Assembly: GCF_057098645.1 (NCBI RefSeq)
Contig: NZ_JBXSPU010000002.1
Length of the DNA stretch: 64,000 nt
Strand: one strand, 5' to 3'
From: a plasmid
How positions within the stretch are numbered: the first letter of the stretch is position 1; each line of letters starts with the position of its first letter. Position numbers: made by a program. Of the stretch, positions 3,001 through 12,000 are shown piece after piece.

Positions 3001-6000
3001 TGCACAGTTTGATGACGGGGAAGTACGTTATGGGGTTCACGTGGAACTAGACGAAGCTGTTAATATTAATTCCTTCCGCATTTTTAAGGATGATAATACA
3101 GGCGGGTTTGATTTTTATTTGTTTTCTGTTTTAGGTAATAATGCAGAGCTTGTCCAGATTAATCTGGATGCCAGCAATATTCATTTGCAGGACATTTTTG
3201 AACGGTCTACCGGTTTGTGTTTGTCCTACTGATGAATTTATTAAATATTTCACATCAGGTTGTTAGCCACGAGGCTGAATATGAAATAATAAGAAAAACA
3301 ATGAGGTGAAATATGAAAACTTTAAATATTCAGGTTAATGACATCGCAGCAATTAGCGCACTTGGCGGCTCAATGTTGGCGGATATTATCGCCGCGCAAT
3401 ATAAAGTGATTGATGATACCAAAGACGCATCTGAAATGGCCATGCCGTGCATTGCTTACGGGCAGATCCCCGCAAACATCGGCCCGGGCGTCTTTATCAA
3501 TCGCGTGTACAGCATGGACAGCCAGTCACTGAGTGCCAGCCAGCGTTACGAGCTCTTTAACGGACTTGCAACCCAGGCGTTTACCTTCTTTTTCCAGTCG
3601 GGCTGGTATGGCGCATTCCGTGTTGTGTCTTTCCGTGATAACGGTCCTGCCGGACTCCTTAATATCGGCATTGTCCATGACAAGGTGTTAAACGAATTTT
3701 GCGATGATTTTCCACGGGCTAATGTCAGCGAAACTGGCTTCAACTGCGGCATGACGTTTGACCAGATCCGGATGTTTATTTCGGACCTGGCCTATCAGAT
3801 GCCTTTGTACAACAACCAAGACCACTTCGTTAAACTCGCCAAACACCTCGCGGCCTGACACCCCTAGCCAGGCTCCGGCCTGGCGATTATGAAGGAAATT
3901 CTTATGAGCGATTTATTCAGCAGCGAATCACCGGTAACACTGGCTCAGGCACGCACTGTCGCCGCTGGGTACCAGAACGTCTTTATCGAAAACCTCCAGC
4001 CAGCAGGCCATTTCCAGATTGTCATCCGTGATCATCGCGACCACGACAGCCAGCTGGTCTGGCGAAACTGGAATTATGAATCCGGTGCCAATGATGCGCT
4101 CAATAGCTACCTGCAAAGCCATGGGCTGAAGGCCAGTTGATTAGCACAAGAACCCGGTAACACCGGGTTTCTTTTTTGTGGGCTCAGCACTCAGAGCTGG
4201 CATACGGAAAAAGGATCATTGGGCTGTCCGGGGCCCGCAGCTGGTGGTGTAAGCCTGGCCTCATGCAGATGGTTTAGCCGGGGGCGGTGATGATGCTGGG
4301 AACTAAAAAGAGATCTGGCATCCGGAAAGAAATCTTCGGTACCTCATGGCCTGCGTGGTGGATATGTCTGGCTGACGACTGCGGTGTCGTCTGTGACGGA
4401 CTCGCTCCATAATAATTTGCGGTCGGGAGAAAAGGGGCGTGTTAACAAAATTTAAGAACAAGGGACTTTAATATAAATACCGAGTCCATTAACGATGACG
4501 CACAGGAGTTTTGTGATGTTACTCAATATTGCATTAATCCTCTATGTTGCTGTTTGTCTTTACCTCTGTCTCCGTAATAAAAAGGCACTTTACCGTTTCC
4601 AGGGCGGAGGGCGTCAGTTTACGCAGTCCAGTAAGAGTGGAGCGAACACAGGCGAAAGTGGTTTCTTCTTAATCTCCGGCTACTCAGACACTGGCGTTGG
4701 GGGCGACAGTGGGGACGCTGGTGGCGGATGTGGGGGCGGTGGTGATTGATACAGGGTGCAGGCACCCGATTGTCGGGGGGCTATCGACAGGGGGTAAAGT
4801 TGACGGATTTTTTCGTAATGGTTTTGCGTCCGTGGTTCTGGCTGGTGGATGGTGAAGTCAGAGGATCTGGTTTTAATCAAGACGGATAGAAAGTAACTTT
4901 ACGGAATCTGTCATACGCAACCGGAAAGAAAATCTCACGCAGGGCAGCAAAGGCACGCCAGAGTGGATTTGCAGATTCGGACGGGAAAGCCTATTTTTCA
5001 TGCACTGAACCTATTTGGGCTGGAACGGAACCTGGTATAGTAGACTCATACAAAGGAGGGCATATGAATACTTTTCTTTACGTGCTGGTGGGCTGGATTA
5101 TCGTTCTATATCTGGTTAATAAAGTCCGCGAAAAGTACAGCAAACCGAAAACAGTTAATATCCTAGTGAAACGCAATGGCGTTTATCAAGAAGTGGAAGC
5201 CGTAGTGATGCCTCGAAGCCATAATAGCGATGTGGGTACAGGTAAGACCGGCAATGAAGCCGCCCCACAATGGTTGAATAAAGAGGATGATATTTCTGAA
5301 CTGGAGTACTACAGTGGCGGGTCACTCTTGAAGGCTGCAAGAGATTTTGAAGCTCAACAAATGGAGCAAAAATTCTAGCCACACTATCAGTGTCCACGAT
5401 TGGGAACTGATCGTGAAACCCTTTACTTTCAGATTCAATAAAGTCGGATGCGAGGAGTTGATTAATGACAACGGCAAACGTAACCACCACTATTTACCGT
5501 TCCGATGACATCGTGCCTTTTCGTCGGCCGCAGGGAGATCTGGATAATCGCTATATGCCGCAGGCTTACGCTCTGGTGCGGAGCTGGGCCAGCAAACCTG
5601 CGGAGTACGGTGCAGGAGTTCTGGCTACCTACAGACAGCCGGTAGTCAATCTCGGGTATAAGATAAAAGGGACTCGCGTTGTTTTAATTCTTGTCCCTAT
5701 CGAATGTGAGCCGGTTGGCGTAAAAATGACTGACGCCGCTTTATGGCCGTCTCTATCGATTGGGGAGGCCATGCGAATTATGCAGGAAGCGTGGCAAAAT
5801 ATTCCGGAGTTGAATCCATAAAAAACCCCGCATTTGCAGGGTTTTTTTTTACTTTGCCGATCTGAACATTTTACTCAGTATAAGCCGAGAAAAGCGCAAA
5901 AGGTTATAGGTAATACGCTGCTCCAGCCGCATGGTTGTTTTGTATCGAGTGGTAACGTTGTGGATATGGTTCAAATCAGTATAAAGGCCCGGAGGCTTTC

Positions 6001-9000: not shown

Positions 9001-12000
9001 CGTGATGCTATTAGGCAGCGTAATAAACGCAGATGCAGCATTTGTAAAATTGACAAAATAAGGCAATAAATAACTCCCCAGCATTTTGGCATTTTTTTCG
9101 ACGAGGCTGCGGCGCTCTTCGGAGTTGTCGAAAGTTATACGAAAGCTATTAAATGTACGTCGACCATTTTCGCTCGCCAGCAGAGACTGGACCCATTCAT
9201 CACATGGGCCTTGTGCTACGGTCCAGTAACTCGTTTCATGGTCACCGTATTCATTGCTGGTGGACAGTTCGCCTTGCAGCAGAAAAAGCTCGGAAAGGAT
9301 GATCGCCATCGCTGATAAAGACTCAGCATCGTTGTCATGGCAAAATTGCCCCACACATTTCAAAGCACCTTTTTCTATCCCCGCCAGTCGGTTACGGACA
9401 TCCTGCGATTCGGTAAACTTCAACCCTAATGATTGCATACGCCGCTTAACGAGCGAGCGGCTTTTACTTACTTTCAGAGATGCACTGAAAATTTGATTTT
9501 GTGTCAGAGTAATTTGCTCATCCATCAATGCAATTTCCTTAGATATTTATTTAAATAGCTTAAACCCACATTCTGGCGCAAAGTTACTTTTCCGGCGGGT
9601 TTCAGGAACATCTCCAGTAACGTCGTATTGGGTTTCATCGCTTTTTCACTTACGGCAATCGGGATCTGCCCGACAACTTTACGACCATCCTGAAGTCTGG
9701 CCACAATATGGAATTTGGGGACCTGGCCCAAAAGCTCTTTTGGAATACTTTCTTCCAGCGTTGTTTGCTTTCTTTCTGATATTGACCCAGAGAAGTTATT
9801 ATGCGGCAAAGTGGTTTCAGATCCTGTCGTATACGTGACCATATTTGTACTAATTGGACTCTTACCAAAGTTTTCTACGACCAGCGTTTGTGTTGGTGTG
9901 TCGTTTACCCGCAGGCTAATGTAGTTGTTACATAGACCTGTAATACGGTTTGCCGTCTCAGCGTTCGCTGCTGCAATAAAGTCGGAAATAGTTTGCGTGC
10001 AGATAAATAATGCAATTTGAGCGGCACGACCCTGTGCGAGTAAGTTTATCATTGAATTGTTTATGGCAGAGTGTGCTTCGTCGACGAAAATACTGATTCT
10101 TGAATGGGAAGACATATCACCATCGTCAGCGTTATAACGACTACCCGCACAAGACGTAAGATCTGACATTATCAACTGCGAAATGGCCCGGGCTGATTCC
10201 GGGTTGGAAAGGCCATCGAGCGAGATATACAGAACTCCGCCGGTACTGAACATCCCATCTGAAGTGACTATTTCACGCGAAGTGAGTGTATTAGGAGACG
10301 GCGAAAGCAATTCATTCAGTGGTTGTTCAGTCAGTCGACTAAATAGCGGCATAATACCCGCCGTCATTTTAGACATGTGTTCAGGATCAGACATGGAGTA
10401 ATCCACTAACCGACCGACGGTATCAATCCATTCAATGGGCTCGGCGCCTTCATAATTAAGAAAATGGGCATTAAACCATTCTGTCAGGCGCTTAAATCGA
10501 ACCTGAAGAGTGTCATTCGAAGCGTATTTCACCTTTTCCATCCAGACATCAGGCCCGTAGTGTCGTGCAAAGCAGCATTCCATTACTTTTATCGTTAGGT
10601 TCACAACAGACATATGGCTTTTCATGTTTTTGTGGATGAGATATATCGACGGTTTTTTATCCGTGTAAGACAGACCAGTGATCACCGTTGAGACGAGAGC
10701 TTCGGCATATTGCACGAATGGGTTAACTTCCCCGGGAACCGAAACCAGACTAAGAAGTCGTGAGGTGAGGTCCGAAACATTTGTGTAAGCATTGCATACA
10801 TCAATACACACCGATGAAGACGGCTGGGCTGGGTGAAATTTATAAAATGGCAACCCCAGTTCTGACGCTTCATCCATCAGTGACTGTCGCCACTCAGCGT
10901 CATTCTTCGGGTCAATAACCACAATGACATGGCCCAAATGCAGCATGCTGATGCTCAGTAAGCGCTGAAGTACCGTTTTACCGGTACCGACGTTTCCGGT
11001 AATGAGGGTATGTCCGAACCAGTTATCTTCGGTCACAAAAATGGGTGCCCGCCGGTCAACAGCAAAGATGGCGTTATTGCCCCCCATGGATCTGGCCATT
11101 GTTTCAAAATGTCGCGCTATAGGGCTTAGAACAAATGGCAGGGCTATCTCTCTTTTGTCACTTGAGAGATTAGCAATTTGATATGCGCGGTCTGCATGCT
11201 CGGGACCCCATTCAAAGCCGTTACAAAAGTAGGTTTTTCTATCCGGTACTGGTCGGTTATTTTTTTTATACTCTTGTACCAGCTGGCGATACTTTCGCTC
11301 GTTCGAGAAAAAGTTACTTTTATTGATCGTCCTGAGCGACTTGAGGCTAATAAACATTATCTGGCGCTGAAATACGCGCCAGTGTGCCATCAAATAGGGG
11401 TGTGCCGTTTTACAACGGTACAAACAAACCAAAAGCAGGAAAACAGCGGTATAAAGAATGATAGGGGCAATATTCACCCCATCTGAACGAAAGCCCATAA
11501 CCAGCATTATGACGGCGCAAATTAAAAGCACTGAGGCACTTCTGTACTCCAGTATCGGCCTGTAAAAGTTTTCCTGAGCGTGCAGGTTGGTTCTTTTTGA
11601 TTTTGTCATTACAGATTCCCGACCTCTTTTAGCTTGTTAATAATTAACTCAATATCGACCTTTGCCCGGTCTGATGCGGCGACCAGAGTTGGTATGTTGA
11701 ATGCAATGCATTTTGTATTGACTACGGCACCGGATGTGACCTGGTACTGAGGAAGTTGGTTAAAAAGCTCAGGCGCATTTAGCTGCGTTCCGTACTTTTC
11801 AATACATGACTGCGTCAGATAAAAGGTGTTCTGGGTCAAAACCATGAACCGGTTTTTCCTCTTTCTTTTGAACGACCCAGATAACTTCGTCAGAATTTGG
11901 TGGAGCATGGTGGCAATCTCGACATATTCGAGTTCTGTGACTTCACCGTCGTTTAACAGGGTGAATTCTTCCACCGCCTCTTTCTCTTCAGCGCCTGGTG

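Follow-up and report, generated by a model that had tools for sequence, protein, structure and literature searches.

The distal end of the DNA-transfer operon of an IncHI1 plasmid encodes a membrane peptidase of family S49 and a membrane-anchored NERD-domain protein, and our analysis indicates that these are probably two separate accessory genes rather than parts of a protease-nuclease machine. The window analyzed here is a stretch of 64,000 nucleotides (nt) from the plasmid contig NZ_JBXSPU010000002.1 (RefSeq assembly GCF_057098645.1), and the genes of interest occupy positions 5849-9528. They are not new, having long been catalogued in plasmid R27 as R0115 (the NERD gene), R0116 (the S49 gene), and R0118 (a neighboring gene here called p368). 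What is added here is the finding that the catalytic residues of both the peptidase and the NERD protein are intact, the evidence that both genes are under purifying selection, a predicted topology for each protein, and the observation that S49 and NERD are separable in evolution.

The window belongs to an IncHI1 plasmid, and the four genes which follow the coupling-protein gene, R0118, traJ, R0116, and R0115, constitute the distal half of H, the DNA-transfer operon of IncHI plasmids. The original prediction had placed four open reading frames (ORFs) of the same orientation, with overlapping or near-abutting boundaries, in this region, and all four were found there on the minus strand. The features of the locus are as follows.

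11609-14686, minus strand: MobH relaxase gene traI (R0120), matching NF041494 with an expectation (E) value of 1e-71

9525-11609, minus strand: coupling-protein gene traG (R0119), of the SXT/TraD type (TIGR03743, E 2.7e-188), annotated as traD in RefSeq

8422-9528, minus strand: p368 (R0118-like), 368 amino acids (aa) from a TTG start

7773-8435, minus strand: traJ (R0117), 220 aa, PF14348

6579-7760, minus strand: S49 peptidase gene (R0116), 393 aa, PF01343

5849-6577, minus strand: NERD gene (R0115), 242 aa, PF08378

5820-5847, both strands: intrinsic terminator hairpin, identified by reading the sequence and by RNA folding

The junctions between these genes are tight. The coupling-protein gene and p368 overlap at TGATG (RefSeq takes the ATG at 9525 as the p368 start, which gives a protein of 367 aa), p368 and traJ overlap by 14 nt, traJ and the S49 gene are separated by 12 nt that contain a Shine-Dalgarno-like AGGTGG, and the S49 and NERD genes are 1 nt apart. 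A 12-bp hairpin begins 2 nt past the NERD stop codon (-18.7 kcal/mol, z = -3.2 by RNA folding). Because the hairpin is flanked by an A-run and a T-run, it can be read as a terminator on both strands, and it is predicted to mark the end of the H operon and probably also that of the convergent gene at 5465-5821. A simple consensus terminator scan missed this hairpin, which was detected by direct folding.

The 3.7-kb region is 100% identical in many IncHI1 plasmids and about 90% identical in a second IncHI lineage, and the peptidase protein is 100% identical to its R27 counterpart (NC_002305.1). The RefSeq annotation gives the order mobI, hypothetical protein, mobH, traD, hypothetical protein, DUF4400 protein, S49 peptidase, and nuclease-related domain protein; the R27 protein TraH is a MobI-like factor. 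In the H operon entries of the supplement to Gibert et al. 2020 (PMC7366339), R0116 is labeled 'peptidase', R0117 'traJ (H), relaxosome protein', R0119 'traG (H), coupling protein', and R0120 traI, while R0115, R0118, and R0121 are placed in the operon without a label. Microarray values in the same supplement show that in an htdA mutant at 25 °C, R0115, R0116, R0117, R0118, R0119, and R0120 were up 5.6-, 4.7-, 7.3-, 8.6-, 9.2-, and 11-fold, respectively, and that the adjoining gene R0114 did not rise (PMC7366339). R0121 is likewise derepressed in this mutant. The joint rise of R0115 to R0120 beside a flat R0114 provides experimental support for co-transcription. Thus, co-transcription with the relaxase and coupling-protein genes, as originally proposed, is supported by the tight junctions, the single terminator, and the R27 microarray values available in that supplement.

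Ratios of nonsynonymous to synonymous substitution rates (dN/dS) were calculated between the IncHI1 sequence of the window and the second IncHI lineage, at about 90% identity. The values were 0.08 for the peptidase, 0.15 for the NERD gene, 0.07 for traJ, 0.06 for traG, and 0.13 for traI. The dN/dS of the four ORFs, 0.07-0.15, is of the same order as that of traG and traI, which indicates that they are real genes and not chance ORFs. The S49 and NERD genes are therefore both under purifying selection and are clearly maintained. Over the longer distance between IncHI1 and the Klebsiella IncHI1B/HI3-type plasmids, the peptidase retains 47% identity, equal to that of TraG and TraJ, and the NERD protein retains 32%, with TraI at 34% and MobI at 31%.

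The assignment of R0116 to an SppA-like S49 family, made in the original prediction, held up in both profile and structure comparisons. The Peptidase_S49 profile (PF01343) matches residues 188-326 with an E value of 8.8e-31. When scored against the curated NCBIfam models, R0116 reached 121.7 bits for TIGR00706 (cut-off 155.45), 92.2 bits for TIGR00705 (cut-off 311.45), and 53.5 bits for SohB (NF008745; cut-off 259). Since these scores are under the SppA and SohB cut-offs, R0116 is a member of family S49 and not an ortholog of either. The protein aligns with the SppA structures of Bacillus subtilis and Escherichia coli, which places Ser203 at the nucleophile position and Lys255 at the position of Lys199 of B. 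subtilis SppA (Ala in the crystallized mutants) and of the corresponding E. coli Lys. Ser203 and Lys255 are conserved in nine S49 proteins from MOBH plasmids, and these two residues together with a GGGGPS segment are invariant across IncHI1, HI2, and HI3. Both residues likewise persist in S49 proteins encoded on Shewanella, Vibrio, IncC, and Hydrocarboniclastica MOBH plasmids, and each of these proteins has one N-terminal transmembrane (TM) segment. As judged from these alignments, the catalytic Ser/Lys set of R0116 is intact. R0116 also matches the PHROG family of S49 prohead proteases (E 1e-33). An identity as a phage prohead protease was rejected; the match reflects the shared S49 family, and R0116 has a membrane anchor and lies in a tra operon.

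Hydropathy analysis of R0116 places a single TM segment at residues 36-54. Read from the translation, the N-terminal tail carries nine Lys/Arg residues within positions 1-35, and an acidic stretch lies beyond the TM segment. Based on this arrangement of basic tail, TM segment, and acidic stretch, the catalytic domain is predicted to be periplasmic, like that of SppA. A cleavable signal peptide was considered and rejected, as the hydrophobic segment begins only at residue 36, behind the long basic tail. R0116 resembles the SppA proteins of B. subtilis and E. coli in its predicted single N-terminal TM anchor, its S49 fold regions, and the positions of its Ser/Lys dyad. It differs from SppA in having a CASAC motif where SppA has AASGG, in its variable insert of 51-58 residues, in its below-equivalog scores, and in being plasmid-borne and linked to traJ. 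The insert, at residues 131-187, is hypervariable and rich in Ser, Thr, Asn, Gln, and His in the IncHI S49 proteins, and it is absent from the Vibrio, IncC, and Hydrocarboniclastica proteins. A related membrane S49 protein with about 29% identity is encoded on the IncC plasmid pZY-2 (locus L004, 7365-9200), away from traI, traD, and traJ. That gene adjoins a DsbA-family gene in a long same-strand run near a replication gene. Our literature search on S49 peptidases with IncHI, IncC, or conjugation returned no function for R0116 or R0115.

The NERD assignment of R0115 was likewise borne out. The NERD profile (PF08378) matches residues 33-143 with an E value of 5.3e-23, and a confident structural model has a PD-(D/E)xK, restriction-endonuclease-like nuclease fold, for which the best matches include the defense nucleases Can2, McrC, SduA, and NucC. 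No sequence relative of R0115 was found in the PDB. A search of 1.84 billion representative proteins yielded 4,863 homologs at E values up to 0.001; among the best 150, many are 200-260 aa long and align over roughly residues 10-212. An alignment of 100 homologs revealed that E84, W101, N114, P115, and Q118 are invariant and that T67, T68, Q69, I70, D71, H72, K86, N119, H122, and H204 are at least 90% conserved. H204 lies in a helical C-terminal extension. The D-ExK motif formed by Asp71, Glu84, and Lys86 is kept across all IncHI lineages, and by sequence comparison the D71/E84/K86 catalytic set of R0115 is intact.

Hydropathy analysis identified one N-terminal TM segment in R0115, at residues 10-28, so that both proteins carry a predicted membrane anchor, as had been proposed. 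For the NERD protein, additional support comes from a charge bias in its family. A TM segment is present in 87 of the 100 aligned homologs, with a mean of 0.26 Lys plus Arg residues before it and 3.2 after it, and 83 of the 87 follow this direction. This bias predicts an N-out/C-in orientation for the family with the nuclease domain in the cytoplasm.

R0115 resembles other small membrane-anchored NERD proteins, including SmdA of Staphylococcus aureus, in its N-terminal TM helix, its cytoplasmic NERD domain, and its helical C-terminal extension. The predicted topology of SmdA matches that of the R0115 family, and the role described for SmdA is in cell division rather than in a known DNA cleavage. 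R0115 keeps the full catalytic motif, whereas SmdA is without several of the most conserved NERD residues. A comparison can also be made with ZwsA, in whose NERD domain the acidic and lysine catalytic residues are of the same type. ZwsA is, however, a large, soluble, multidomain protein (VHS, DUF647, and S4), whereas R0115 is small, membrane-anchored, and single-domain, without those additional domains. Searches for defense systems (PADLOC, the MADS component MAD6, and the Pgl/BREX component PglW) returned no full-length component, and the locus holds no partner genes of these systems. The matches obtained were local, namely to the NERD portion at the N terminus of PglW (E 1e-3) and to MAD6 (37.7 bits, cut-off 460). 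Membership in Pgl, BREX, or MADS was rejected on the grounds that the similarity is that of a local domain.

The distribution of the two genes provides evidence that they are separable. The full set of traI, traG, p36x, DtrJ, S49, and NERD genes is present in IncHI1, IncHI2, IncHI1B/HI3, and one metagenomic lineage (L011/L012), and in a second metagenomic lineage, represented by a short contig, the visible end comprises a p36x fragment, DtrJ, S49, and NERD. A scan of genome contigs with a TraJ alignment built from IncHI sequences returned six loci; the scan addresses the IncHI family and not chromosomal MOBH integrative and conjugative elements outside it. Five of the six species-representative genomes have the full set. 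In PLSDB, at least 80% of the peptidase is covered in 1,826 records and at least 80% of the NERD protein in 1,819. Co-occurrence of the pair, which the original prediction suggested checking in other MOBH plasmids, is near-universal in IncHI-type plasmids; it does not extend to the Shewanella and Vibrio plasmids and the Photorhabdus element described below, in which an intact NERD gene is missing.

Three MOBH lineages have an S49 gene directly after traJ. No NERD gene accompanies it in Shewanella pSA70-3 and Vibrio parahaemolyticus pVb1182-tet, where traJ lies on one side of the S49 gene and the genes for pilus assembly, traL, traE, traK, and traB, on the other (L003, 8845-9846, and L018, 8920-9915, respectively). 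In both plasmids a small unannotated ORF of 111-129 aa comes after the S49 gene. Nothing lies between traD and traJ in pVb1182-tet, and pSA70-3 has a gene for a 181-aa protein where p368 would be. With the Shewanella S49 protein as query and an E limit of 1e-20, 1,826 plasmid records were matched, which equals the number carrying a near-full-length IncHI-type S49 gene; among the matches listed were IncHI-size plasmids with about 28-34% identity.

A third case is found in Photorhabdus heterorhabditis, in an IncHI-like element (NZ_RCWA01000006.1; L021, 9855-10260). Here an intact S49 gene (395 aa, 51% identity) is present, but all that is left of the NERD gene is a 14-codon remnant (9871-9912) that reads 'HGIYVI*EKNYVG', in which a stop takes the place of the catalytic Glu codon. 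This element is a natural loss of NERD alone. On the other side, the sampled NERD homologs with about 30% identity stand alone in unrelated neighborhoods, and R0115 differs from them in lying inside a conjugative transfer operon. The NERD-less S49 loci and the Photorhabdus loss suggest that the association of the S49 gene with traJ in MOBH plasmids is old and that the NERD gene joined later, in IncHI-type plasmids only, and was lost at least once.

Two of the sampled NERD loci have neighborhoods that can be described further. One is a stand-alone membrane NERD homolog with 32% identity (L014, 6001-7380) that lies next to an AcrVA2-like protein and to an unannotated gene block beside a DEAD-box helicase, which may be a mobile-element or defense context. 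The other is on a plasmid of Methylobacter sp. YRD-M1 (L005, 6038-7696), where the gene for a NERD homolog with 29% identity is immediately preceded by an equally oriented gene for a retropepsin-like aspartic protease. This adjacency may be a second case of a protease next to a NERD protein, or it may be due to chance.

Taken together, the predicted placement of the two domains on opposite faces of the membrane, the NERD-less S49 loci, the Photorhabdus remnant, and the stand-alone NERD genes argue against a single protease-nuclease machine. The predicted topology and the differing evolutionary histories of the two genes make the proposed 'protease plus nuclease pair' less likely. We agree with the accompanying statement that neither is a standard relaxosome component. 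Our current hypothesis, which in its joint form we consider about as likely to be right as wrong, is that R0116 is an SppA-type envelope protease for the biogenesis of the transfer apparatus and that R0115 is a separate membrane-anchored nuclease near the transfer channel. R0116 would act as an SppA-type Ser-Lys membrane protease whose basic tail and single TM segment put the catalytic domain in the periplasm, and it would carry out envelope proteolysis while the transfer apparatus is made. Candidate jobs would be the clearing of the long pilin leader, of remnant signal peptides, or of mis-assembled Tra membrane proteins. The host proteases SppA and SohB could partly substitute for R0116, and we propose this as the reason why the gene is conserved and yet has no tra name. 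An envelope role is the most likely one for R0116 given its predicted topology, the pilus-assembly neighbors in two lineages, and the IncC S49 gene beside a DsbA-family gene, a periplasmic helper. R0115, in turn, would be an N-out/C-in NERD nuclease with its D-ExK site in the cytoplasm, made along with the coupling protein. It would cut nucleic acid at the inner membrane by the transfer channel, serving for protection or clean-up and not as part of core DNA processing.

Several points weigh against this hypothesis. The activities, substrates, and topologies of R0115 and R0116 are all predictions. The dN/dS of the peptidase is lower than expected for a gene redundant with SppA and SohB, which would point to a more specific substrate. 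The involvement of the NERD protein SmdA in cell division means that a nuclease role for R0115 is not certain. The S49 and NERD genes are intact and adjacent almost always across roughly 1,820 IncHI-type plasmids, which would also fit a functional pair. The view that these ORFs are not needed for transfer goes back to a 2002 study by Lawley and colleagues, in which mutants of nine out of 14 Tra1 ORFs were reportedly transfer-deficient. This number matches the nine Tra1 genes that bear tra or trh names, so that R0115, R0116, and R0118 would not be among those required.

The adjacency noted above also fits a reading in which R0116 and R0115 form a cooperating module, for example for defense, abortive infection, or exclusion, with the protease acting across the membrane to control the nuclease or respond to it. 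Wherever an IncHI lineage has both genes they are neighbors with a gap of 1-11 nt, and about 99% of IncHI-type plasmids carry both intact. The Methylobacter arrangement is a weak hint in the same direction, and a protein partner for an S49 protease has a parallel in B. subtilis, where the membrane protein SppI is described as a regulator of SppA that forms a complex with it. Nonetheless, we regard such a module as unlikely. The membrane is predicted to separate the two domains, two MOBH plasmid lineages have S49 but no NERD and in Photorhabdus the NERD gene beside it has decayed, the relatives of NERD stand alone, the IncHI1 and HI3 proteins have diverged at different rates, and the search with PADLOC gave no system match beyond weak local similarity to PglW at its NERD end. 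A further proposal concerns R0115 by itself, as a membrane-tethered endonuclease beside the coupling protein that destroys entering foreign single-stranded nucleic acid, such as the genomes of single-stranded RNA (ssRNA) phages that use the H-pilus. A 2026 preprint describes ZwsA as an RNA endonuclease with a NERD domain, one that cleaves the ssRNA phage genomes of PP7 and MS2 and defends Pseudomonas aeruginosa, with activity lost when the equivalent E/D/E/K residues are mutated. The IncH-specific ssRNA phages Hgal1 and pilH-alpha exist and use the H-pilus, so that, with the precedent of ZwsA, a membrane NERD nuclease could guard piliated donors. Such a role would also fit the co-expression of R0115 with the transfer genes and hence with the phage receptor, its predicted anchoring at the inner membrane, and the defense nucleases among its best fold matches. 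Set against these points are the missing ZwsA domains, the lack of a defense-system profile match among those searched, and the loss of the gene in the Photorhabdus lineage. R27 cells are also reported, in the 2002 work by Lawley, to propagate Hgal1 well enough for an H-pilus assay. On balance, a guard of this kind is improbable.

We attach a similarly low probability to the proposal that R0115 is not a nuclease and would instead serve as a membrane scaffold or nucleic-acid-binding tether that places plasmid DNA or the coupling protein. A role of this kind has been proposed for SmdA, whose layout of N-terminal TM helix, long helix, and cytoplasmic NERD domain is equal to that of R0115 and which acts in cell division. 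The analogy is limited by the catalytic positions, as R0115 retains D71, E84, K86, and the other family-invariant positions, whereas SmdA is without several of the most conserved NERD residues. For R0116, a dedicated maturation role can be envisaged, in which it would be the missing protease/cyclase of the TrhA pilin or would process TraJ or another Tra protein. According to a 2026 paper, the TrhA protease/cyclase is still unidentified. R0116 would be a candidate as a predicted periplasm-facing Ser-Lys protease in the tra region of all IncH lineages that evolves as slowly as essential tra genes, and in Shewanella and Vibrio its counterparts sit between traJ and traL/E/K/B. However, pilin cyclization is essential for conjugation, whereas R0116 bears no tra or trh name, which argues that it is not essential, as the 2002 study by Lawley reportedly indicates. 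In addition, R27 encodes an RP4-TraF-like signal-peptidase homolog, which authors favor as the cyclase, and the known pilin cyclase is of the S26 type and not S49. We therefore consider a specific maturation role very improbable, and R0116 as the TrhA cyclase is less likely than R0115 as a guard against phage. Of the readings discussed, the preferred one thus continues to be an envelope protease and a separate membrane-anchored nuclease.

These assignments matter because IncHI plasmids play a major part in carrying multidrug resistance among Salmonella Typhi, E. coli, Klebsiella, and Enterobacter. Essentially every IncHI plasmid encodes these two predicted enzymes, which are induced with the transfer genes, and more than 20 years have passed since R27 was sequenced. 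The function of R0115 and R0116 could reveal how donors handle the stress that building the apparatus puts on the envelope, or the phage exposure that comes with piliation, and that of R0116 could bear on the maturation of the H pilin. If R0115 were to act against pilus-specific phages, the plasmid would be offsetting a risk made by its own pilus. Regardless, the two genes are best treated separately, with R0116 as the predicted periplasmic protein tied to traJ and R0115 as the predicted cytoplasmic, IncHI-specific one.

The remaining two genes of the operon half are p368 and traJ. The 220-aa protein had been described as polytopic, and hydropathy analysis agrees, with three to four TM segments in what is assigned as a polytopic inner-membrane protein; it had not been recognized as TraJ/DtrJ, a known and essential coupling-protein partner. 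It matches PF14348 (DUF4400, now DtrJ-like) with an E value of 2.4e-12, and the position of its gene after traG is kept in all lineages compared. The protein is thus TraJ/DtrJ, the partner of the coupling protein and a known transfer protein, whose homologs in Rts1 and SXT are required for transfer. The 368-aa protein p368 is soluble, without a TM segment by hydropathy, and gave no match in Pfam, NCBIfam, PADLOC, or PHROG profiles. In both sequence and structure searches its orthologs were found only in IncHI-type elements. The AlphaFold2 model has a mean predicted local distance difference test (pLDDT) score of 70.8, with a good N-terminal half, and a structure search with this model returned no meaningful fold match. 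The dN/dS of 0.09 for p368, from the same pair of lineages as above, indicates that it is a real gene.

Additional observations were made around the operon. The relaxase ORF as called mechanically has a TTG start, encodes 1,025 aa, and overlaps an upstream gene for a 240-aa protein (14644-14686), while RefSeq takes a later start that gives 1,011 aa. On the plus strand, a run of small ORFs (5465-5821 and 1850-5400) converges on the end of the operon. It includes the genes for a DUF905 protein and for a 401-aa protein (579-1784) whose orthologs elsewhere are annotated as 'DNA-binding protein', and several IncHI lineages (L001, L009, and L011) have the same set downstream of NERD. At the far end of the window, Rfam identified an aminoglycoside leader / attI site of a class 1 integron at 54609-54684 on the minus strand (RF02912, 72 bits). 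The ORFs near this match (53837-55790 and 56171-63112) comprise an integrase-sized ORF, three repeated 240-aa ORFs resembling those of insertion sequences, and a 286-aa ORF. With ORF identities guessed from size, the attI match and these ORFs look like a resistance region.

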